The notes beneath the pieces were generated by a model, which was not told where the DNA came from, did no database searches, and was given only the letters and a program-made list of their open reading frames with translations. Shown one piece after another: positions 31,388-63,814 of a DNA stretch of 64,000 bases (position 1 is the stretch's first letter; each line of letters begins with the position of its first letter). Both the position numbers and the translations under genes were made by a program. Source of the stretch: Nanobdellota archaeon (GTDB lineage: Archaea > Nanobdellota > Nanobdellia > CSSed11-243R1); NCBI GenBank assembly GCA_021162365.1, contig JAGGYW010000014.1, positions 2,518 through 66,517 of the forward strand, written 5' to 3'.

Positions 31388-32368
31388 TTACACAACCCTT
31401 ATCCCTCCGAAAAATGCGGAGAGGACGAGCCTTGCTATATAAAACAATGCAAGTGCAATCCCCAAGAAAAATGGAATATACTTTACTCCATATTTCTCAT
31501 TACCTTTGTTTATTAGTGCAACTATGAAAGAAGCAAACACGGAAACAATTGTCAAATTAATGTACGCAAAGTTAGTTAAAAACTCTCCGGAGATGCTGGA
31601 TGGTACAATTTTAACAGTTGGTGTTTTTTCTGTTACAAATTGAACTGCAATTGAATGACTTAGCTTTGATAAAACTTCTGCAAGCTGGATGGACACTGCA
31701 TATAAGACGGGTGCAATCAAACAAGCGGCTATGAATATGAAAAATGCATACACAAAAATCATAGATCTAACTTCTTTTCTTATGGACGCAGTTTCCTTTA
31801 TATCATTTGCAGTGCTTTCTAAAAGAACTGATAAATCACCACCAGAATTAATTCCCTCTATTATCAAATTCATGGTTTGCTTGAACAGCTTTGAATCAAT
31901 TCCATAAGAAAGCTCGGAAAAAGCGTCAACTAATGAAGCACCTGCTGCTATTTTTTTCCCAGCCTTCTTAATCTTATCTGCAAGAAAACCAAATTCCGGA
32001 CGTGCACTAAGCAAAAATGCTTCCTCTGGAGAAATACCACTCCTTAAATTAGACGCCATAAGTAGTAGTACATCCGGTAACATCATCTCAACATACCTTG
32101 CCCTCTGCTCTGCAAGAAGGGACAAAATCATCAACACACTTGCATAGTAAATGAAAACAGTTAACGCAGCAGATATAAGAGCATAAAAAGCTCCGTAAGT
32201 ATTAAACACAATCAATCCGGCAATAGTAGTAATTATAACTCCTAGCAAAAAGTTAACACTTACAAAGTAAAATGGGTTTACTTTAATGTCTGCATAAGTT
32301 AGCATTTCCTTTACTTTCTTTACCTTTCCTCTCGTCAGCAGCTTGCCAAATTCAATTAATAAATTCAT
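31388..32368 (-). CDS. TadC/PilC/FlaJ-like platform protein (T2SS-F domain), second half
   Basis: A T2SSF-like domain (LRSGISPEEAF...LVDAF) between TM helices. Confidence 0.55.
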   Translation of the reverse strand: MNLLIEFGKLLTRGKVKKVKEMLTYADIKVNPFYFVSVNFLLGVIITTIAGLIVFNTYGAFYALISAALTVFIYYASVLMILSLLAEQRARYVEMMLPDVLLLMASNLRSGISPEEAFLLSARPEFGFLADKIKKAGKKIAAGASLVDAFSELSYGIDSKLFKQTMNLIIEGINSGGDLSVLLESTANDIKETASIRKEVRSMIFVYAFFIFIAACLIAPVLYAVSIQLAEVLSKLSHSIAVQFVTEKTPTVKIVPSSISGEFLTNFAYINLTIVSVFASFIVALINKGNEKYGVKYIPFFLGIALALFYIARLVLSAFFGGIRVV

Positions 32369-54932: not shown

Positions 54933-55456
54933 TCGAACACCTCCCTACTGATAAAAGGACATAGCGCCATATAAATCCCGTGCTTATACAACTCTTTTCG
55001 AGTTACTCTACCTTTTGTGAAGACTCCTATTGCCCCTTGCTTCTTCTTAACATCCTTTTCACCAATCATTTCATCCATCACGGTACCTAATTCCTTTCCC
55101 TTTCTTATCTCAGCTAGAACTTTTTCAGGACATTCAAACCACCCAGAAGTGCCAGTACCAATTTTTCCACTCTTATCCATAATAACAACAAAGCCAAGAT
55201 TGTAGTACTTCCCACCAAGTTTGATTATGCCTCCTTCAATTCCAACAGAAAAATCAACGCCTGCTGCCATAGCATTTCTTGCTCTATTTAGTGCTCCAAG
55301 GATAACTTCCTCATTAAATGGCTGCGGAGGAACATTACTTTCTATCGGCTTCCCTGTTATATGTACATCTCCAAAAACCTCACTAAAAACTTCTTTCACT
55401 GCATCAACCTTCACGGGGTTTGTAGATGCAACCACAACTCTCATTTCAACCACCAA
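54929..55456 (-). CDS. Non-canonical purine NTP phosphatase (YjjX/DUF84 inosine/xanthosine triphosphatase family)
   Basis: The N-terminus VVVASTNPVKVDAVKEVF matches the family signature (ASxNPxK). Confidence 0.55.
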   Translation of the reverse strand: MVVEMRVVVASTNPVKVDAVKEVFSEVFGDVHITGKPIESNVPPQPFNEEVILGALNRARNAMAAGVDFSVGIEGGIIKLGGKYYNLGFVVIMDKSGKIGTGTSGWFECPEKVLAEIRKGKELGTVMDEMIGEKDVKKKQGAIGVFTKGRVTRKELYKHGIYMALCPFISREVFE

Positions 55457-58400
55457 AAAATTCAGTTAATCCTTTTTGTTTTGTTGGCTCTTTTCCAAAG
55501 ACAGATTCAACTCTCCTCTTTAGGATCTCAAGAGATTGTTTCAAATACTCGGGCAAGGAGTACTTTTCAGCTAAATTCAAAGAAGGTTCTAAATATTTTG
55601 AAACTGTTCCTTCGGAAACTGTCAACACAAGTTTACCACCACATTTAGTGCATTTCCCACTCAAAGGAATCCTTCTATACTTTTCATTGCACTTTATACA
55701 TCTAACTTCCTGACGCGTAAACTTTCTTAAATTTCCTTTAATATCTTTTAAGAAATGTTTCTCAATAACAATCCTTGCAACATCAGCCTTATCAACCGCT
55801 TTTATCTTATCTGCAAGTTCCATCTGGCGCTTAACTTTATCTGCAATGGTAGTAAGTGTCTTATACGCTGACACCCTATTTCCAACATTCATGTCAGAAA
55901 CATCATGGGTGAATTTGAATCCGTGATATTCCTCTGGCGTTCCAAGGGTATGTTCGACCTGTTTGATTTTAACATCGTATGGAGACATCCATTTCTGGGT
56001 TGCCTCATAAAACTCAATTGGGTATTCATCCACAATGTCCATATTGTAAACTTCGTCATCTACTTCTTCCGGTATCAATCTTGTTGTTAGAACTAATGGT
56101 GCGTCCATATGCCTACTTCCACGAGCATCTGGTAGATACTGGCGAGAGAAGTTAAGGAGTGCGTCCATTAACAACATAAATCCTAATTCATCCCCATCAC
56201 AATTCCTTCTGACAGCAGAATGAAAGTATGGATGAGCGAAAAAACATTGTGTTTTAGAGAAGCCAATTATTCTTCCAACCATACCTGCTGATGTGTGCGG
56301 TGCAAGTGCAATAATTAATTTGCCGACCATATCTTTTGGTGAAGATATATTGTAATACCTGTCAAGCTTGTAATGTTTTTCTAACAAATCATCAACAAAT
56401 GCGGCAGTATTATAAACCATTTGCAAAGCAGTGGTGTCCTGCCAGTCCTCACAATCGGGAAGTATAACATCTTGTGGGAAAAGTTCTAAAATTTGATTTG
56501 GATTTTCAAGAGGCTTCCCGTAAATGTCGTGAGTGTATCCCAATTCCTTTAGCTTCTCTACGCTTGTTCCAATCTCTTTTGGCCTAAAATGTGTAATTGG
56601 TGTCTCAATTGCATCATACCTAATAGTTCCGTCTTTGTTAACATAAACATTGTGTAATGCTCGCAAGATTCCTTTCTCAATTGGCTCAGGTATTCTTAAT
56701 TTATTAGAAGTGCCCCTGACACCTTTAACAAGCGGAGGTAATGAAACCCCTAAGTTAGTTAATGCATTATCTACATATGCCTTTACATCTATCTTCTGCT
56801 TTGTAAAGAAAACTGTTCTGATTCCACAATGCATTTCCTTATCTGTTTCCTTCCCACACCGCACACAAAAACGAAGTGGCTCCAGCCTTGCACCACACTT
56901 GGGACACTTAGGGTATATATTTGTGACTCCACACTTTTCGCATCTAAATTGTGGGAATTGGGACTCAACATACCCAACTTCTAATGCAGCATTTAAACTC
57001 CTCATCCTACCCCCTTGGGAGGATACCGGAAATAACACATGTGGGCTCCCCTTCATCTTTCTTAGCTTTGCTTTCTCGGGCCGGCCAAGGCGAGCACCCA
57101 CATATATTCCAACTCTATCCCTTACTTTCACTTTGGATAGAGAATTCACAACATCAAGAGGCGTTTCAAAAGTTTTATTATCTAATTCTGGCCAAACTCC
57201 ATCAGGGAGATATCCAAATGAATAAAGTAACCCTATTGCATCGCTTCCCTCTATTAAAATTCCTTCATCCGTAAGTTTATGTGGCAAATAAATTTCTTCC
57301 AACGTTTTTTTAATAGACTTATTATGTGAAAGGACAATCTTATCTCCATCTATCTTCGACTGCTTTAGCGAATTAAATAAATCAATTATTTCTTCTGGCG
57401 TTGAATTATTAAAGAAGAAAGTCAAACTTGAATGAAGAGGAATGTTGTATTTAATTGAAATCTCTGCAAGAGCTTTTGGATCTAATTCCGAGATATCTTC
57501 CTTTCCACCAGCATTCCTGAATTCTTGAATCCACCACTCTTCAACATACGGACTTGGAACAAGTATATGATTGTTCCTCGTAAATTCACCATACGCAACA
57601 AGAATGTCCCCCAAGAACAAAATCTCTTTAATCCTATTTTTGTATTTGTAAAAATCCTCAAGAGTATTTATTTTAACAACACTCTCATCATTTAACTTTA
57701 CAACAGGTCCATCTATTGTATCGCAAGGAGTAGCAGCACATGCTTTTCCGGGTCTCTCCAACCTTAACTGACTACCTGTTGCAATAAAATCCCCAAGAAC
57801 ATGCATAGTTGCTGGATTAAAACTTGCTGCAGCAAGGCCGCTTAAACGAGAACGCCCGTATCTTAATCTAAACCCTCCCTTTCTCATTGGATAAGAAAAA
57901 ACAGGTCTACCTGCAACAGTCTCCTGAATGTAAATATCGTTTGGTTGGATTGTTTTTGACTCAACCTTTGATCCTGCATGTATCTTTGTCTTTAGCTCAA
58001 CATATTCTTTTAGGAAAGTCCAATCAGACAAATCAAAATCTTTACCCCATTTCTCAACTCTCTTCAAAAGTTTTGGTGCCTTCTGGGCAAGGCCCTCACA
58101 AAGAACTAAACACATCCCTCCACGAATTTTTGGAGTGCCTACTCTTGGCAAATCTTTGTAGATTAAAACTTCTCTATCAGATGTGGGGTCTCCATTAATT
58201 TCAATCGGTAAGTGTTTCAAAAGAAAGTCAAGCTCTTCAGGTGTTGGGAAATATTGAAGACGGGCAACCGAATGATGATATGCTTCCACTTCAACCTTTG
58301 TTCTTTCTATTTCCTCTTTTGTTATATCAAACGGTTCAAGCCCAAACTTGCGACGTAGATAGTCAGCAATCAATAGAGTAACTGCTGCAGCAGTACCTCC

Positions 58401-58862
58401 AGCAGCTCTTATTGGTCCAGCAAAATAGCAGGAAGCATACTTCTTACCATCCATCCTTTCTTTTATTTTAAATTCTATGAATCCTTCAAGAGGTGCAGAA
58501 ACAACACCCATAGTGATGTAAGCAAGTCCGACCCTAATCCCAACTTCCATCGCTTCCCTTTGATCTTTGAATTTGCAGAACTTCTCCCTTGCAACTTCTT
58601 CCGCAATTGTGAGAGCAACTCTCCAGTCCCCACTACCAAACTTTTTATCTAACTCCTCCAATCTCTTAGCAATCCCAGACCCAACTATTTGAGGGGCCAA
58701 AGCACCTACAAGCCCTTCAACTCTTTCAAAAAGATTTTTTGCAAGAGGGATATCTACATAATCCTCGGGGTCGCTACCTATCTTGCGTGCTTCGCTAGCA
58801 ATTTCGTATGCTCTTTTTACTTCTTTTTCAATTGACTCAAAATAATGTTGTATGTTCATCAC
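55446..58862 (-). CDS. polC: DNA polymerase II (PolD) large subunit DP2
   Basis: 1138 aa. Cys-rich Zn-binding motifs (CxxC...CxxC near the C-terminus and a central CEKCG...CPKCG). Immediately downstream of DP1. The length gives no indication of an intein. Confidence 0.9.
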   Translation of the reverse strand: MMNIQHYFESIEKEVKRAYEIASEARKIGSDPEDYVDIPLAKNLFERVEGLVGALAPQIVGSGIAKRLEELDKKFGSGDWRVALTIAEEVAREKFCKFKDQREAMEVGIRVGLAYITMGVVSAPLEGFIEFKIKERMDGKKYASCYFAGPIRAAGGTAAAVTLLIADYLRRKFGLEPFDITKEEIERTKVEVEAYHHSVARLQYFPTPEELDFLLKHLPIEINGDPTSDREVLIYKDLPRVGTPKIRGGMCLVLCEGLAQKAPKLLKRVEKWGKDFDLSDWTFLKEYVELKTKIHAGSKVESKTIQPNDIYIQETVAGRPVFSYPMRKGGFRLRYGRSRLSGLAAASFNPATMHVLGDFIATGSQLRLERPGKACAATPCDTIDGPVVKLNDESVVKINTLEDFYKYKNRIKEILFLGDILVAYGEFTRNNHILVPSPYVEEWWIQEFRNAGGKEDISELDPKALAEISIKYNIPLHSSLTFFFNNSTPEEIIDLFNSLKQSKIDGDKIVLSHNKSIKKTLEEIYLPHKLTDEGILIEGSDAIGLLYSFGYLPDGVWPELDNKTFETPLDVVNSLSKVKVRDRVGIYVGARLGRPEKAKLRKMKGSPHVLFPVSSQGGRMRSLNAALEVGYVESQFPQFRCEKCGVTNIYPKCPKCGARLEPLRFCVRCGKETDKEMHCGIRTVFFTKQKIDVKAYVDNALTNLGVSLPPLVKGVRGTSNKLRIPEPIEKGILRALHNVYVNKDGTIRYDAIETPITHFRPKEIGTSVEKLKELGYTHDIYGKPLENPNQILELFPQDVILPDCEDWQDTTALQMVYNTAAFVDDLLEKHYKLDRYYNISSPKDMVGKLIIALAPHTSAGMVGRIIGFSKTQCFFAHPYFHSAVRRNCDGDELGFMLLMDALLNFSRQYLPDARGSRHMDAPLVLTTRLIPEEVDDEVYNMDIVDEYPIEFYEATQKWMSPYDVKIKQVEHTLGTPEEYHGFKFTHDVSDMNVGNRVSAYKTLTTIADKVKRQMELADKIKAVDKADVARIVIEKHFLKDIKGNLRKFTRQEVRCIKCNEKYRRIPLSGKCTKCGGKLVLTVSEGTVSKYLEPSLNLAEKYSLPEYLKQSLEILKRRVESVFGKEPTKQKGLTEFFGG

Positions 58863-60343
58863 AAAAACCTCATTACTTTAGTTTGATTTTCTTTTAAACT
58901 AAATATAGGAACTCTGCCCGGCGTTGGGTTATGACCAAGTTTTTCCTGGAAAGGGGTTTTCTTTTGGAAGCACCCAGTACCAATTGTTGTAATATTTTTA
59001 TACCTCCCAATTTTGGTATAGTGAATATGCCCGCTTGCAAAAACATCTACCGGGCTATCTATTACTAAAAAGTCGCGGGCCATTGGATTAATTAAGGTAG
59101 AACCATGTGATGGAGCAAGATGTCTCTTCCTCAAAAGGAACTCCATAATCTTATCCGCTCTTTCATATCCAAACTTCCTTAGGAAAGGAACATCGGAAAC
59201 TAATCTGTCAAACGACATTCCATGATATAATAAAATATCAAATCCAGGGAATCCATCAATTCCATGAATATTGACAACTGCAGGATTTGATGCCATAGTT
59301 ATGTTATTAATTTGATAAACTGGCCTTGCAATATCCTCAAACAAAACATGTTGCGGCTCTGCAAGCCGTAAGGCATCGTGGTTCCCAGGTATAACAATAA
59401 TTTGAATATCTTCCGGAATGTCTGCAAAGTATTTTGCGAACTCTTCATATTGGGAATAGATATCTTTTATCACCAACTCCTTCTCCTGCCCAGGGTAAAT
59501 ACCAACACCATCAACTAAATCTCCTATTACAAAAAGGTACTTCACTTTTTTCGCAACTTCTCTTTGTGCCTCAGAACCAACCTTTCCATTAAGCCACTTT
59601 ACAAACATGGAAAATTCCTTTGGCAGAAACATGTTGCTCCCTACATGAGTATCTGAAACAAATGCAGCATATACATCATCTTTTGACTTCTTGATAGGTC
59701 TATCTGGGACATCTGGGAAGAGTATTTTTGTAGGATAAATTACATTCTTTGATTTTGTGCCGATTACACCTATCACTTCATCCAAAACAATTTCGTCTGC
59801 TACCTTTACAACATCTTCGCTCTTTAATATGAGATTTATTTGCCCTGTGGGGTCTTCTATCTCTACTATGTGTGTACCTGTAAATGTCTTTCGTATATCC
59901 TTTACCATCCCTATTGTTGCTACCTCTTGCCTCCCAGTCATTTTTAAGATTCTGGAAATAGAAACAACATTTCTCAATTCAATTCTATTCCTAAGGAGAT
60001 TGCTTAATCTCTCAAACCTATCTAAATAGTATGTAAGCCAGTCGTTAATGTCTATTTTCTTGTTCGTCTGCCTATACATTTTTTTAAGTTTAACACTTGT
60101 ATCAACTTCACTTCTTCTGTCAACAGGCCGCTTTACAATATATTTTATTTCCAATTCTTTCTTCTGGGAACCTAAAAATTCAGAATACAATTCATTTGTT
60201 ACAAAAATAGGTTTTGGGTCCTTTGTCTTAAGAAATTTAAGGAAATCTTCTATGTGCTCTTCCTTTATTTCTAAGTCAGGGGACACCAGAAATCCTGCAT
60301 TGATTATTTTGGTTAGTTTACTTTCCATAACATTTACCCCCAA
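58859..60343 (-). CDS. polB: DNA polymerase II (PolD) small subunit DP1 (calcineurin-like phosphoesterase exonuclease)
   Basis: Phosphoesterase motifs (GDLVD, GNHD). N-terminal OB region. Translationally coupled to DP2. Confidence 0.85.
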   Translation of the reverse strand: MGVNVMESKLTKIINAGFLVSPDLEIKEEHIEDFLKFLKTKDPKPIFVTNELYSEFLGSQKKELEIKYIVKRPVDRRSEVDTSVKLKKMYRQTNKKIDINDWLTYYLDRFERLSNLLRNRIELRNVVSISRILKMTGRQEVATIGMVKDIRKTFTGTHIVEIEDPTGQINLILKSEDVVKVADEIVLDEVIGVIGTKSKNVIYPTKILFPDVPDRPIKKSKDDVYAAFVSDTHVGSNMFLPKEFSMFVKWLNGKVGSEAQREVAKKVKYLFVIGDLVDGVGIYPGQEKELVIKDIYSQYEEFAKYFADIPEDIQIIVIPGNHDALRLAEPQHVLFEDIARPVYQINNITMASNPAVVNIHGIDGFPGFDILLYHGMSFDRLVSDVPFLRKFGYERADKIMEFLLRKRHLAPSHGSTLINPMARDFLVIDSPVDVFASGHIHYTKIGRYKNITTIGTGCFQKKTPFQEKLGHNPTPGRVPIFSLKENQTKVMRFL

Positions 60344-60354
60344 GGGGATTTTAA

Positions 60355-61563
60355 TTACAACTTAAGATCTGCTTTTAAGATCTCTTCAATCTTATTAACA
60401 ATTTCATCAGACACACTTAAACTTATCTCCCTTGTTCTTCCATATCTCCCTTTTGAAATTACCTTTGCATTAATTATTCCAAGCATATCTAATTCAGATA
60501 TTAAATCGGATACTCTCCTTTGTGTTAAAGGTTTTGTTGCAGTCCTAATACAAATGCTTTTGTAAACATCATAAATTTCCCCTGTATAAACTGGGGGTTC
60601 TCTACTCTTTAAAATAAGGATCGCGGCATAAAGCACAGATTGTGACTGCATAGGCAAATTCTTTACAACCTCCTCTATTGTTTCCTTCTCAATTTTTTCT
60701 TCTGCAGCATCAACATCTCTTTCATCGATTCTGTCTTTTCCTGCCCTCTCAGCAATTTCACCAGCAACCCTAAGCAAGTCTAAAGCTCTTCTTGCATCTC
60801 CATGTTCCCTTGCAGCATACGCAGCACACTTCGCAATCACAGATTCTGAGATCACACCATCGTTAAATGCAATTTTTGCCCTTTCAGTTAGAATATCTTT
60901 AAGTTGTATTGCATCATATGGTGGAAAAACCATTTCCTCTTCATTTAAAGAGGATTTAACCCGTGGATCCAAGTTGTTCATAAAAAGAACATCGTTAGAT
61001 ATGCCAATTATGTTAAGTTTTGCATTCTTTAATTCTTGATTTATTCTTGTCAAATTATAAAGGACCTCATCACCAACCTTTTTTACAAGCTGGTCAACTT
61101 CATCTAAGATTAAAATTATAACCCTCTCTTCTTTATCTATTGCTTCAAAAAATATTTTATAAACTTCATCAGTTGGTAGCCCTGTTGCAGGTATTTCCTG
61201 ACCGAACTCCCTTGCAAGCTGTGCAATTAATCTATATTCTGTATCTGCAACTTTTCTCATCTTACAATTCACATACACAACCTTTAGTGGCACTTTCTTT
61301 GACTCTGCAATCTTGCTAAGCTGAGAACAAACATAATTTGTACATAATGATTTACCAGAGCCAGTTTTCCCATAGATAAACACGTTTGACGGCTTCTCCA
61401 ATCTCAAAGCGGGCGCCAATATTTTTGCGAGCATGGCAATCTGGTCTTCTCTATGTGGTATATTATCAGGAGTATATTTTATTGTAAGAGCATCCTTATT
61501 AGCAAATATTGATTGCTTATTCAGAAACTCCTCAAAGATTTTATCTACGGCTACCCCCATCAC
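60355..61563 (-). CDS. cdc6: Orc1/Cdc6 replication initiator
   Basis: AAA+ Walker A GKTGSGKS. Walker B ILDEVD. C-terminal winged helix. Adjacent to the ORB elements. Confidence 0.9.
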   Translation of the reverse strand: MMGVAVDKIFEEFLNKQSIFANKDALTIKYTPDNIPHREDQIAMLAKILAPALRLEKPSNVFIYGKTGSGKSLCTNYVCSQLSKIAESKKVPLKVVYVNCKMRKVADTEYRLIAQLAREFGQEIPATGLPTDEVYKIFFEAIDKEERVIILILDEVDQLVKKVGDEVLYNLTRINQELKNAKLNIIGISNDVLFMNNLDPRVKSSLNEEEMVFPPYDAIQLKDILTERAKIAFNDGVISESVIAKCAAYAAREHGDARRALDLLRVAGEIAERAGKDRIDERDVDAAEEKIEKETIEEVVKNLPMQSQSVLYAAILILKSREPPVYTGEIYDVYKSICIRTATKPLTQRRVSDLISELDMLGIINAKVISKGRYGRTREISLSVSDEIVNKIEEILKADLKL

Positions 61564-61859
61564 TTTTTCTCAAAACAAGATTATTTAAATCCTTTTGTAT
61601 ACTCTAGAATATGTTCCACACGAAATAAATATGTCTAAAAAACTTCACAAGTGGAGCTTACACATACCTTTGTTTCCTGTGGAAAAGAATAAAGAATTCT
61701 GGCACAAAAACAAAAATTTTCTATTACTTTCATCCAAAGGGTGTATGTTTCCTGTGAAAATAAGAAAAGACTTGACTTTAAACGAAACAAAGGTGAATAT
61801 TAATCTTACATAAGCAGAATTAAAAATCTTAAATAGAAATTCATTATTTTTTCAAATGC

Positions 61860-62045
61860 AGCTTATTTTTTGCTTCTTTTATTTATTATCTATATTGAAA
61901 ATAAATATATAATATATATAATAGAGTGAATAAAAACAAAAAATGGAAATTTCCACTGGAAATAAGGGGGAGGTCTAAATTTTGTTCCAAAAGAATAAAA
62001 GGGGTGTATTTTAAATTCCAAAAGAAATAAAGGGGTGTATTGCTT
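61860..62045. other. Chromosomal replication origin (oriC): AT-rich DUE followed by three same-orientation ORB/mini-ORB elements
   Basis: 61861-61935 is more than 85% AT. ORB1 at 61951-61970 reads TTCCACTGGAAATAAGGGGG (dyad plus G-string). ORB2 (61985-62008) and ORB3 (62016-62039) read TTCCAAAAGAA(T/A)AAAGGGGTGTA. Location is upstream of cdc6-polD, as in Pyrococcus oriC. Confidence 0.6.
61889..61908. repeat. 20-bp direct repeat TCTATATTGAAAATAAATAT, copy 1 of 2
   Basis: Identical 20-mer at 62708-62727. Together they flank the gene 62106..62672. Confidence 0.6.
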
Positions 62046-62105
62046 TCTTTTTTAATCAAAGTTTTTAAAAATTGATTTTTTTATTTCAACCCTTTCTAAA
62101 GGAAA

Positions 62106-62672
62106 TTATGGTGTGTGGGTGTTGAAGAGATCATGTAATTTATTTATCTTTGCTTTTAGGATCTGGTTCTTGCCCACCTTCTCTTTAAGCCAATCCTTTA
62201 ACAACTCAATTTTCTTTTTCAGGGCGTGCTCCCCTTTTATCTTTTCTTCATATTTTAAACGAACTTTGATATTGTTAAATTTTTTAATTTCTTCTTCAAG
62301 GCGGATGATTTGTTTCTTAATTTCTTCCTCCCAATTTATGTCTGCTTTTTCCTCTTTTAATTCTTCAAGCTTTTTCTTTTCTTTTTCCTTTAGTTGCTTT
62401 GGAAATATTGCATATGGTCCTAGTGTGTAGTACTTATGTTCTGCTTCTTCACCCCAGGTGAACATACCTTTCTCTCTTTTTACATCAACAACAATATACT
62501 CTCCAAGTTCGACCCCTTTCTTTAGATTGTAATAAAGATTTCTTAATGAGATATAGCCAAAAACATTTCTATAAATTTTGTAAATTTGATAACCATAGCT
62601 TATATTCAGATGTTGTAAAATAACCGCAATTCTCTCCCGGATGTCAGTTTTTACTGGTCTCCCCCTTGGCAT
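62106..62672 (-). CDS. PadR-like winged-helix protein with C-terminal coiled coil (origin-adjacent)
   Basis: N-terminus RERIAVILQHLNISYGYQIYKIYRNVFGYISLRNLYYNLKKGVELGEYIV resembles the PadR wHTH. The C-terminal KE-rich coiled coil follows. Confidence 0.4.
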   Translation of the reverse strand: MPRGRPVKTDIRERIAVILQHLNISYGYQIYKIYRNVFGYISLRNLYYNLKKGVELGEYIVVDVKREKGMFTWGEEAEHKYYTLGPYAIFPKQLKEKEKKKLEELKEEKADINWEEEIKKQIIRLEEEIKKFNNIKVRLKYEEKIKGEHALKKKIELLKDWLKEKVGKNQILKAKINKLHDLFNTHTP

Positions 62673-62707
62673 GCTTTTAGATGGTATTTTCTTACTTTAA
62701 TTTTTTT

Positions 62708-62727
62708 CTATATTGAAAATAAATATG
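62708..62727. repeat. 20-bp direct repeat TCTATATTGAAAATAAATAT, copy 2 of 2
   Basis: Identical to 61889-61908. It sits in the divergent promoter region between the 188-aa gene and RPA. Confidence 0.6.
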
Positions 62728-62779
62728 TAAAAAACCAACCAAAAACAAACCTTTTTATAATTCAAACTCAAACAATACT

Positions 62780-63814
62780 TTGGGTGCCACTATGTTAAAA
62801 ATTCCTATATCTGAAATTATAAGCCGAATAAAAGAGAAGACAGGATTAGATGAGAAAGTAATTGAGAAAAAAATTGACGACAAGGTTGAAGAACTCTCAG
62901 GTCTTGTTTCTCGCGATGGGGCGGCACACATAGTCGCTAATGAGTTTGGTATTCAGCTTTTCAAGACAACTGAAACAGGATTACTTAAAATTAAAAATAT
63001 TCTGCCTGGATTGAAAACAGCATCTGTTGTTGGTAGGGTTCTAAGAATTTATCCTGTTAGAGTGTTTACGACTAAAAAGGGCAATGAAGGTAAGGTTGTT
63101 TCTTTTTTAATTGGCGATGCAACAGGAAGAATAAGAATTGTTTTTTGGGATACAAATCAGATAAAGCTAATTGAGGAAGGTAAGTTAAGCGAGGGAGATA
63201 TAATCAAAATAACTAACGCATATGTTAAAGAAGGAATAAATGGATTGGAACTTCACGCCCGTTCAGCAAGTTTAATTGAAGTTAACCCAAATATTCCAGA
63301 GGCAAAAGAAATACCCCCTCTCGATGAATTGTGGCAGCTGAGTGAAAGAGTGTCAATTAAAAACATAACTGATGAAGGAGTTTACGAAATTCGCGGCGCT
63401 GTAGTAAATATATTGGAAAATAACCCCTTCTTTGATGTTTGCCCCATCTGTAAAAAAAGAACACACGACGGTTTTTGTAGCGAGCATGGCAGAGTTGAAC
63501 CAAAGAAATCTATGTTTATCTCAACAATAGTTGATGACGGGACAGATAACATGAGAGTTGTGTTTTTCGGCAAGCAAGCAGAGCAACTAATAGGTATGTC
63601 CTCTGAAGAGGCATATAACTTATCAAAAGAGCACAACGATCCATTCTATCCAATAGAAGTGAAAAAAATTGACATACTCGGCAGGGAATTAGTAATTGAA
63701 GGTAAGGTTTCTAAGAATGATTTCTCTGGCGAGTTAGAGATGATTGCAAGAAGATTAACCACACCTAATCCAATAGTTGAGTCTAAGAAACTTATGAAAG
63801 AGTTGGAAAAATGA
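62780..63814 (+). CDS. rpa: Replication protein A (RPA) ssDNA-binding protein with OB folds and Zn ribbon
   Basis: OB-fold segments (VVGRVLRIYPVRVF...GDATGRIRIVFWD) and a zinc ribbon CPICKKRTHDGFCSEHG. Confidence 0.8.
   Translation: MGATMLKIPISEIISRIKEKTGLDEKVIEKKIDDKVEELSGLVSRDGAAHIVANEFGIQLFKTTETGLLKIKNILPGLKTASVVGRVLRIYPVRVFTTKKGNEGKVVSFLIGDATGRIRIVFWDTNQIKLIEEGKLSEGDIIKITNAYVKEGINGLELHARSASLIEVNPNIPEAKEIPPLDELWQLSERVSIKNITDEGVYEIRGAVVNILENNPFFDVCPICKKRTHDGFCSEHGRVEPKKSMFISTIVDDGTDNMRVVFFGKQAEQLIGMSSEEAYNLSKEHNDPFYPIEVKKIDILGRELVIEGKVSKNDFSGELEMIARRLTTPNPIVESKKLMKELEK

Follow-up and report, generated by a model that had tools for sequence, protein, structure and literature searches.

The intergenic DNA upstream of the orc1/cdc6-PolD genes is, with a probability of roughly 0.87, the origin of chromosomal replication in a DPANN archaeon of the Woesearchaeota type, belonging to the widespread Orc1-1/oriC1 kind. 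The origin region spans positions 61564-62117 of the window (the whole stretch of 64 kb that was analysed), and consists of the cdc6-ORF188 intergenic DNA together with the last origin recognition box (ORB), which overlaps the stop codon of the ORF. A preliminary description had already placed an origin upstream of cdc6-polD, which is supported at the sequence level by the type of the initiator, the ORBs, the AT-rich tract and their conservation; however, it gave the extent as 61860-62045, and only the right half had been seen. The region thus appears to be a canonical oriC1-type origin, of an ordinary kind in a little-studied lineage, from which replication would be predicted to fire. The new part is a conserved palindrome in the AT tract, which recurs just upstream of the adjacent gene for a 188-aa protein. 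The genome may have further origins outside the window. To our knowledge, the experimental mapping of replication origins has covered only about a dozen species of archaea, and no DPANN archaeon is among them.

The initiator locus and its ORB elements

The window contains one cdc6 copy and one ORB cluster. The orc1/cdc6 initiator gene (60355-61563, minus strand; Pfam Cdc6_C, Cdc6_lid and AAA), which probably begins at the ATG at 61560, encodes a protein that scored 558 bits against the ORC1-type NCBIfam equivalog NF001625 (cutoff 501). Its best PDB relatives were S. solfataricus Orc1-1 (2qby_A, E 4e-110) and A. pernix ORC1 (2v1u_A, E 1e-102), both ORB-bound structures, whereas Orc1-3 (2e-46) and the Orc1-2 types (1e-20 to 1e-29) were far behind. 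Because of this distance between the PDB matches, the initiator was assigned to the Orc1-1 type, as an Orc1-1 orthologue. Downstream of cdc6 on the same strand lie the Pfam-identified PolD small subunit DP1 (58859-60343, directly downstream) and large subunit DP2 (55446-58862), and the order cdc6-DP1-DP2 is kept in about 70 of 80 relatives. On the other side of the origin, the ORF of 188 codons (62106-62672, minus strand) is transcribed towards the origin and is followed by a gene for an RPA-like single-stranded DNA-binding protein (62780-63814, plus strand; Pfam OB-fold and Rep_fac-A_C), which probably starts at the ATG at 62792 and matched NCBIfam replication factor A at 4e-61, under the curated cutoff.

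The intergenic gap upstream of cdc6 measures 542 bp (61564-62105), and the origin region is 75% A+T; the genome as a whole is AT-rich, with about 36% G+C. A likely cdc6 promoter TATA box, TTTAAATA, lies at 61583-61590 on the minus strand within a block, TATACAAAAGGATTTAAATAA, that is kept in four relatives. The conserved ATG at 61560 follows the box at a distance of about 27 nt, implying a leaderless or near-leaderless cdc6 mRNA. An Rfam scan of 61400-62900 returned no RNA family match, ruling out a structured RNA gene as the explanation of the region. A scan for sigma-70 promoters and terminators gave matches at the level of shuffled sequence; these are bacterial-type signals that are not relevant to archaea.

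Six ORB-type sites were found in 61564-62117: four on the right in the same direction, one strong inverted site on the left, and one mini-ORB. The first right-hand site, R1 (61951-61973, plus strand), reads TTCCACTGGAAATAAGGGGG at 61951-61970 and TTCCACTGGAAATAAGGGGGAGG in its full form; it has a perfect dyad, scored 27.9 bits, points its G-string away from the AT tract and is kept in the relatives L001 and L003. R2 (TTCCAAAAGAATAAAAGGGGTGTA, 61985-62008, plus strand, 20.3 bits) and R3 (TTCCAAAAGAAATAAAGGGGTGTA, 62016-62039, plus strand, 29.5 bits), 31 bp from R2, are both kept in relatives; each repeat is 24 nt long, and the two differ in the position of a T. The weak R4 (TTCTAAAGGAAATTATGGTGTGTG, 62094-62117, plus strand, 18.3 bits) overlaps the 3' end of the 188-aa ORF and has counterparts in L001 and L003. 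The left ORB (TTCCACAGGAAACAAAGGTATGTG, 61661-61684, minus strand), which is inverted with respect to the right-hand ORBs, has the top score in the window (31.2 bits); its dyad is turned towards the AT tract, it is kept in relatives, and a site of its class lies at -80 to -175 from cdc6 in most of them. All dyads of this set thus face the AT tract with the G-strings outward, the left ORB being on the minus strand and the right ORBs on the plus strand.

Between the left ORB and the cdc6 promoter lies the mini-ORB (TTCCACACGAAA, 61614-61625, plus strand, 20.5 bits), which is without a G-string. It is kept in L001, L002 and L003, and sites oriented in the same way occur at -15 to -65 from cdc6 in many relatives. 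The mini-ORB stands 25-40 bp ahead of the putative TATA box of cdc6 and is a candidate site for Orc1 autoregulation. In addition, a degenerate ORB occupies 61736-61759 (minus strand), with a matrix score below 12; its dyad, TTTCACAGGAAA, is at 61748-61759 on the minus strand, but its G-string, AAAGGGTGTA, is on the wrong strand (61736-61745, plus strand), whereas the homologous site in L002 and L003 has a normally oriented G-string.

These sites were recovered by independent means. The ORB core TTCCANNNGAAA has 10 matches in the window against 1.9 expected, five of them inside the 542-bp intergenic region, and a count of ten was reached in none of 100 shuffles. A position matrix built from the relatives only, with the window excluded, was scanned over both strands (128 kb) at a threshold of at least 16 bits, and gave six matches, all in 61614-62117. 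The family ORB logo, tTTCCAnAnGAAAtnAAGGnGT, has GGnGT as a conserved element four bases beyond the dyad, at positions that had not been used for finding the sites. We also compared the sites over 21 nt with the ORB of S. islandicus, whose sequence, CTCCAATGGAACCGAAGGGGT, was pieced together from primers in the literature. The ORBs here are in the same register as this query, with GGGGT also in register, and their identities are 13-15 of 21: R2 (joint best) and R3 are the two best matches in the window with 15, the left ORB and R1 have 14, and R4 has 13. Used as a literature query, the ORB sequence string returned unrelated papers only.

The AT-rich tract between the inverted ORBs (61780-61950) is a candidate duplex unwinding element (DUE). 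At scales of 60, 100 and 150 bp, its nearest-neighbour free energy marks it as the least stable part of the 64-kb window, whose most AT-rich 75-bp stretch (89%, first base 61878) it also contains. Its 75-bp core (61866-61940, 88% A+T) abuts R1 and agrees with the DUE of about 75 bp and more than 85% A+T that the preliminary description had placed before the ORBs. The earlier account of the ORBs themselves was right in part. Its ORB1, a dyad plus G-string, is R1, and its two further repeats in the same orientation are R2 and R3 on the plus strand, although the 23-nt consensus given for them was one base short. The three ORBs that it counted are real, but the inverted left ORB, the mini-ORB, the weak R4 and the palindrome in the AT tract had been missed.

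The preliminary description had named a lack of ORB conservation in related genomes, together with a skew minimum elsewhere, as a reason to abandon the origin. Across 80 related species of the Woesearchaeota clade, the core proved to be enriched about 60-fold ahead of cdc6, with 2.35 occurrences per kb over the 900 bp that precede the gene and 0.04 per kb elsewhere (58-fold). Other intergenic DNA of the relatives had 0.015 per kb (150-fold fewer). Inverted ORBs surround the AT maximum in 43 of 64 loci, and relatives with 78-92% Cdc6 identity show block-wise footprints of the origin region. This conservation points to clear purifying selection on the ORB elements across species whose Cdc6 proteins are only about 60% identical.

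By analogy with Sulfolobus, Aeropyrum and Pyrococcus, Orc1 monomers would bind each ORB with a fixed polarity, the winged helix contacting the dyad and the initiator-specific motif of the AAA+ domain contacting the G-string. The ATP form of Orc1 would then bring MCM to the AT-rich DNA that the inverted ORBs enclose, the duplex would open beside R1, and two forks would depart in opposite directions. Orc1 bound at the promoter-proximal mini-ORB would probably regulate its own gene.

Strand composition and competing readings

The preliminary description had suggested GC skew as a check on the origin. Over the whole window this skew follows gene orientation, so third-codon-position skews were computed separately for the genes of each strand instead. 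The asymmetry is strong and uniform over 61 kb on the cdc6 side, with the cdc6-coding strand rich in G and T (p 1e-7 and 1e-8). Such a pattern is consistent with a fork that sets out at 61.6 kb or farther on, and the polarity is the usual leading-strand polarity for forks leaving the origin locus. On the far side, the window has only two genes, and L092, the second assembly of the same organism, offers 3.5 kb, in which AT3 flips sign and GC3 does not. Among five near relatives with 10-kb flanks, L087, whose 528-kb scaffold has the homologous locus near 285 kb, matches the window, L089 and L090 show the opposite polarity, and L088 and L091 have no switch; because these polarities contradict each other, they were not used either way. 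In the aggregate of 80 loci, AT3 switches on either side (p about 1e-5) with a polarity opposite to that of the window, and this was not counted as support. Archaeal skews are weak and variable in polarity (PMC12999951). Taken together, the skews, which cover only 2-3.5 kb of the far side, are compatible with an origin but not decisive.

Since the skews do not prove a switch at the locus, the region might be only the regulatory DNA of the cdc6-polD operon, at which Orc1 autoregulates while replication starts elsewhere or without a fixed origin. The position of the mini-ORB ahead of the putative TATA box and the recurrence of promoter-proximal sites in relatives would suit such a role, and Orc1/Cdc6 proteins have been reported as gene regulators in some archaea (PMC5333045; PMC9738581). 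Nevertheless, autoregulation does not need four further ORBs 390-560 bp upstream, nor an inverted arrangement of the ORBs around the least stable stretch in the 64 kb, and this arrangement copies an origin that has been proven by mutagenesis and marker frequency. Moreover, both roles coexist at one locus in known cases, so that regulation would be an addition to the origin and not an alternative to it. We therefore regard a purely regulatory region as very unlikely.

A genuine origin might also be dormant or dispensable, with the chromosome replicated mainly from another origin or by recombination-dependent initiation. Non-essential or silent origins have been reported in some archaea, such as the dormant origin of Haloferax mediterranei (PMC5333045), and the abstract of a preprint speaks of origins 'non-essential under laboratory conditions' (bioRxiv 10.1101/2023.11.15.567178), so that an origin may carry the elements and still not be used; a local skew switch, moreover, is not demonstrable here. 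Dormancy is, however, at odds with the purifying selection on the elements across such divergent Cdc6 proteins, and with the strong, uniform asymmetry of usual leading-strand polarity on the cdc6 side. ORC1/Cdc6 is also present in 206 of 208 complete Nanobdellota genomes, whose authors use it as an origin marker and rotate their assemblies to it. These points make a dormant origin highly improbable. Finally, short A/T-rich repeats are common by chance in an AT-rich genome, and the window holds many weak repeat families, but a chance cluster, devoid of any specific function, in a long stretch between genes is refuted by the shuffles, by the enrichment across the 80 species and the scarcity of the core in their other intergenic DNA, by the agreement of the relatives-only matrix with the independent Sulfolobus ORB query on the same sites, and by the conservation of the elements in position and orientation, leaving it a negligible probability.

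The analysis provides an explicit sequence-level origin model for a large uncultured clade, specifying the ORB logo, the polarity and the position of the DUE. It yields evidence that these reduced genomes keep the Orc1-1/ORB grammar known from Sulfolobus and Aeropyrum, and gives a precise origin coordinate for growth-rate estimates from metagenome read depth.

A conserved palindrome and the adjacent 188-aa protein

The palindrome TTATCTATATTGAAAA (61886-61901) lies inside the AT tract as the core of a 44-nt repeat (61869-61912). Its columns are invariant in four relatives, and the family consensus is the 16-bp TTTTCwATATAGAAAA. Of 45 inter-ORB regions, 17 contain the k-mer CTATATTGA (0.4 expected), a match with at most one mismatch is present in 36 of 66 species (0.7 expected), and the palindrome is enriched about 30-fold upstream of cdc6. 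A second copy, TTTTCTATATTGAAAA (62704-62719), lies in the ORF188/RPA intergenic DNA, 32 nt before the start codon of ORF188, again as the core of a 44-nt repeat (62687-62730). The two 44-nt repeats are 84% identical, and the exact 12-mer of the palindrome occurs at only these two places in the 64 kb.

Two simpler roles were considered for these copies. The palindrome was rejected as the TATA box of the 188-aa gene, as it abuts the start codon in L004 (-1) and L090 (6 nt). The AT-tract copy of the 44-nt repeat was likewise rejected as the promoter of a small gene; the sole mini-ORF downstream has 12 codons and is not conserved in L001.

In the 188-aa protein, an N-terminal RGRP motif, which is AT-hook-like and invariant in its family, is followed by a predicted winged helix of PadR-like type and then, at the C-terminus, by a helical domain. 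Searches gave no NCBIfam match and, at E-values up to 10, no Pfam family beyond noise, PadR included; among its homologues, no precomputed Pfam domains were found. The AlphaFold model (pLDDT 89) predicts a winged helix with a long wing and C-terminal helices, and its best Foldseek matches were PadR structures, with probabilities of 0.98-1.0 and E-values of only about 1e-3. The family has 180 representatives in 1.84 billion proteins and comes in long (about 185 aa) and short (about 105 aa) forms. The genes of the long-form homologues always adjoin oriC. In all 13 long-form loci the palindrome precedes the ATG of the gene by -1 to 32 nt, and of two short-form genes inspected, one also has it upstream.

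The 188-aa protein is thus a candidate binder of the palindrome. The occurrence of the palindrome both in the AT tract and upstream of the gene for this PadR-like, AT-hook-bearing protein therefore suggests a lineage-specific origin accessory factor. As an added and less certain layer of the mechanism, a dimeric factor, most likely the adjacent 188-aa protein, would bind the AT-tract palindrome; its gene would carry the same palindrome as its own operator, and the factor would modulate origin opening or licensing. We propose only tentatively, as a possibility that is rather less probable than not, a dedicated Woesearchaeota origin accessory system, in which the palindrome in the unwinding element and a lineage-restricted PadR-like RGRP protein, autoregulated via the palindrome, would gate opening, the protein acting either as a DUE-occupying repressor or as an architectural activator. 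The palindrome and the neighbouring DNA-binding protein offer a testable lead on the control of initiation in host-dependent archaea. If the accessory system is real, the protein would be the first candidate origin-specific regulator in DPANN archaea, and a functional analogue, not a homologue, of Sulfolobus ucm/UBP and of bacterial oriC regulators.

Comparison with known origins and regulators

PadR regulators form two subfamilies of different size, long and short. The 188-aa family would resemble them in this division, in the palindrome just upstream of its own gene and, as far as the predicted model goes, in the winged helix with a long wing and the C-terminal helical domain, as in the B. 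subtilis PadR-operator complex (PDB 5x11). It differs from them in being tiny, without a Pfam PadR match and with an invariant N-terminal RGRP, and in that the second presumed operator copy of the 188-aa protein is in a replication origin and not at a target gene.

The preliminary description had likened the arrangement to the Pyrococcus origin with RPA nearby. The order origin-cdc6-DP1-DP2 is indeed that of P. abyssi and P. furiosus (PMC1904270; PMC4010727), the Pyrococcus ORB core TTCCAGTGGAAA is almost identical to R1, and ORB and mini-ORB classes with inverted ORBs flanking AT-rich DNA are present in both (PMC1904270). The likeness does not extend to the ORB spacing: the 34-bp Pyrococcus ORB, TTCCAGTGGAAATGAAACTCTGGGGGG, has a 9-nt spacer before the G-run (PMC1904270), compared with 3-4 nt here. 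Nor does it extend to the second ORB/mini-ORB cluster that the Thermococcales have inside dp1 (PMC1904270), since dp1 here (58859-60343) had no matrix match of at least 12 bits and a single core match at 58958. The RPA gene adjoining the origin is a further difference from Pyrococcus, and is shared by near relatives only. The ORB spacing is of the Sulfolobus/Aeropyrum kind and not Pyrococcus-like.

Another close parallel is oriC1 of S. islandicus and S. solfataricus. The S. islandicus origin has been proven by mutagenesis and marker frequency, whereas the present one is predicted from its sequence. The Sulfolobus origin likewise has an Orc1-1-type initiator encoded beside it and a further ORB towards the initiator gene, and the ORBs share the dyad, the 4-nt spacer and GGGGT in the same register (15 of 21 identical). 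In the ORB3-DUE-ORB2 unit of S. islandicus, as here, inverted ORBs turn their dyads inward on an AT-rich tract and their G-strings outward. There are, however, four ORBs on the distal side here and one there, the inverted strong ORBs are 265 bp apart versus about 100 bp (roughly a twofold difference), and the middle left-hand ORB is degenerate here. Both AT tracts contain a conserved non-ORB motif, ucm in Sulfolobus and the palindrome here, but the 16-bp palindrome has no resemblance to the M6/M7 region that covers ucm (AGATAACCAT TATACAAAAG). The presumed binders differ as well: UBP, which binds ucm, is an abundant, beta-rich nucleoid protein that forms a saddle-shaped dimer and occupies hundreds of genomic sites, whereas the candidate binder here is a PadR-like winged-helix protein encoded beside the origin.

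ORB elements around the AT-rich tract next to cdc6

The Cdc6 protein encoded in the window is 100% identical to 'MAG: ORC1-type DNA replication protein [Nanoarchaeota archaeon]' and its relatives come from Woesearchaeota/Nanoarchaeota MAGs; the source is a DPANN archaeon. Three minus-strand genes, encoding PolD DP2 (55446-58862), PolD DP1 (58859-60343) and Orc1/Cdc6 (60355-61563), border a 542-bp intergenic region (61564-62105), beyond which lie a minus-strand ORF for a 188-aa protein (62106-62672) and a plus-strand RPA-like gene (62780-63814). The preliminary description had placed an origin at 61860-62045, with three origin recognition boxes (ORBs) and an AT-rich duplex unwinding element (DUE) of about 75 bp with more than 85% A+T. 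All three repeats were recovered, at 61951-61970, 61985-62008 and 62016-62039, each on the plus strand, and the candidate DUE (61866-61940) is indeed 88% A+T. The 75-bp window with the highest A+T content in the 64 kb lies in this tract, which is also the least stable DNA there at the 60, 100 and 150 bp scales.

The ORB core TTCCANNNGAAA matches the window 10 times, as compared with 1.9 expected (0 of 100 shuffles reached ten), and five of these matches fall in the intergenic region. We then scored both strands with a 26-column matrix built from 122 sites upstream of cdc6 in other species, with the window left out. Matches of at least 16 bits numbered six, all within 61614-62117: a mini-ORB (L0, 61614, plus strand, 20.5 bits), L1 (61673, minus strand, 31.2 bits), R1 (61951, plus, 27.9 bits), R2 (61985, plus, 20.3 bits), R3 (62016, plus, 29.5 bits) and R4 (62094, plus, 18.3 bits). 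Since all six are placed around the AT tract, the origin is two-armed, with four ORBs beyond the tract on the right and, on the left between the tract and cdc6, an inverted ORB plus the promoter-proximal mini-ORB. The origin interpretation is supported by the ORBs, the initiator type and the conservation described below, but its extent and architecture needed correction.

A seventh, degenerate dyad lies at 61748-61759 on the minus strand with its G-string on the wrong strand; across this degenerate ORB (61736-61759), the G-string (AAAGGGTGTA) occupies the opposite strand and the opposite side of the dyad. At the homologous site of two related loci (L002 and L003) the G-string has the normal orientation, which points to decay or a small local inversion in the window lineage. 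Isolated ORB-core matches also occur at 58958-58969 (minus strand), near the dp1 3' end, and at 31900-31911 (plus strand, 15.4 bits); neither belongs to a cluster.

Conservation and strand composition

The conservation of the ORBs in related genomes was evaluated in 80 loci, obtained by scanning one genome per GTDB species, and the elements proved to be conserved. The order cdc6-DP1-DP2 is kept in about 70 of the 80 loci. Over the 900 bp that precede cdc6, the ORB core reaches a density of 2.35 per kb; the remainder of the loci has 0.04 per kb and the other intergenic DNA of the relatives 0.015 per kb. Inverted ORBs surround the AT maximum in 43 of the 64 loci with enough upstream sequence. 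When the origin region was aligned with those of relatives at 92%, 82% and 78% Cdc6 identity, conservation came in discrete blocks, at the mini-ORB, the left ORB and the three right-hand ORBs, at the TATA region of cdc6 and at one place within the AT tract.

The RPA-side gene block is also kept in near relatives (L087 to L091) and in a second assembly of the same organism (L092). It comprises RPA, an RNA-binding protein, IF5A, a histone, eRF1, a class I aminoacyl-tRNA synthetase (Pfam tRNA-synt_1) and SAM synthetase, and several of its genes are oriented towards the origin. LAGLIDADG-domain inteins interrupt DP2 in some relatives, and also SAM synthetase in L090 (L081, 7989 onward; L090, 12755-17743 and 1-888); in L091 (8683-9333) an inserted free-standing LAGLIDADG gene separates the 188-aa-type ORF from the origin. 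The window DP2 (1138 aa) lacks an intein.

Because the raw GC skew of the window tracks gene orientation, third-codon-position skews were calculated by gene strand. Between 0 and 61.5 kb, GC3 and AT3 are +0.28 and -0.03 in the 33 minus-strand genes and -0.04 and +0.30 in the 24 plus-strand genes (p = 1.5e-7 and 1.3e-8). The asymmetry is even along the window and the cdc6-coding strand is G/T-rich, as is usual for the leading strand of a fork that departs from the locus. For a switch of the asymmetry at the locus, the window offers only two genes beyond the origin; L092 adds 3.5 kb, over which AT3 changes sign and GC3 does not, and the polarity of the skew is inconsistent among near relatives with 10-kb flanks. 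The skew is at most compatible with an origin here. Over 1-61563 (55 long ORFs), GC3 and AT3 each have a strand component of about 0.16 that does not depend on how the genes are oriented, the minus strand being rich in G and T. This asymmetry is unusually strong; it is large relative to the archaeal values in the PMC12999951 survey, which described archaeal skews as weak, as set largely by the orientation of genes and, at third positions, as inverted in some cases.

A palindrome shared by the AT tract and a PadR-like gene

A palindrome, TTATCTATATTGAAAA, is located inside the AT tract at 61886-61901. The 44-nt stretch that holds it (61869-61912) recurs with 84% identity at 62687-62730, with its palindrome at 62704-62719; this second copy lies 32 nt upstream of the 188-aa ORF start codon. 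The exact 12-mer of the palindrome occurs only in these two places in the 64 kb. In relatives, the consensus TTTTCwATATAGAAAA is enriched about 30-fold upstream of cdc6; its k-mers are found in 17 of 45 inter-ORB regions (0.4 expected), and the palindrome with at most one mismatch in 36 of 66 species (0.7 expected).

No Pfam or NCBIfam family matched the 188-aa protein, whose family is very small (26 close homologues; 180 representatives among 1.84 billion proteins) and has an invariant N-terminal M-x-RGRP motif. The confidently predicted structure (pLDDT 89) has a helical domain at the C terminus in addition to a winged helix, whose wing is long. PadR regulators, among them a PadR-operator complex, are its top structural matches. 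Without exception, the long forms (~185 aa) have their genes immediately next to the origin; the genes for short forms (~105 aa) lie elsewhere. Each of the 13 long-form loci has the palindrome upstream of the gene and also within the AT tract, and of two short-form genes examined, one has it upstream. In the related locus L029, both copies share the variant TTTGCAATATTGyAAA. A role as the TATA box of the 188-aa-type gene was ruled out, as the palindrome abuts the start codon in L004 and L090, and it is therefore a putative operator.

The origin-region DNA of L092 is identical to that of the window where aligned, save for a 278-bp deletion within the 188-aa ORF, which reflects variation within the population or else an assembly error; it leaves an 84-aa product with the winged-helix domain only (L092, 2748-3002).

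From the pairing of the palindrome with a PadR-like protein we tentatively predict an autoregulated dimeric protein that might also bind the unwinding element, a possibility we rate at somewhat worse than even. The pairing would be analogous to Sulfolobus ucm/UBP in role only, as sequence and fold differ, and is the part of the locus that merits follow-up.

Comparison with characterized origins

The ORB elements, their polarity and conservation, and the initiator type are evident at the sequence level. By analogy with model systems, Orc1 would occupy each ORB as a monomer of fixed polarity, the ATP form of Orc1 would recruit MCM to the tract that the inverted sites enclose, and the duplex would melt beside the inner ORB; replication would be bidirectional. 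The mini-ORB lies 25-40 bp before the TATA box and would probably mediate cdc6 autoregulation. The literature searched yielded no published account of the ORBs of this origin, and no origin has been characterized so far in the clade; the sequence evidence supports its assignment as a canonical Orc1-1/ORB origin, of a known kind.

The logo of the relatives' sites is tTTCCAnAnGAAAtnAAGGnGT, and GGnGT is conserved four bases past the dyad, at positions outside the search pattern. The Thermococcales have an ORB cluster in dp1, whereas the window has a single isolated core match near the dp1 3' end. We rebuilt the ORB3-DUE-ORB2 sequence of Sulfolobus islandicus oriC1 from mutagenesis primers (supplement of PMC12141716); its ORB is CTCCAATGGAACCGAAGGGGT, with the dyads towards the DUE and the G-strings outward, and the window sites are oriented alike. 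With this ORB as a query, the two best window matches (15/21) were at 61985 and 62016; the site at 61951 and the left ORB came next, each with 14/21. The P. furiosus ORBs have the core in common with the window but a 9-nt spacer, and the window ORB grammar is therefore Sulfolobus/Aeropyrum-like. The initiator type agrees with this grammar, as the closest solved structures, 2qby_A (4e-110) and 2v1u_A (1e-102), are the two ORB-bound structures of the Orc1-1 type, and the Orc1-3 and Orc1-2 types match far less well.
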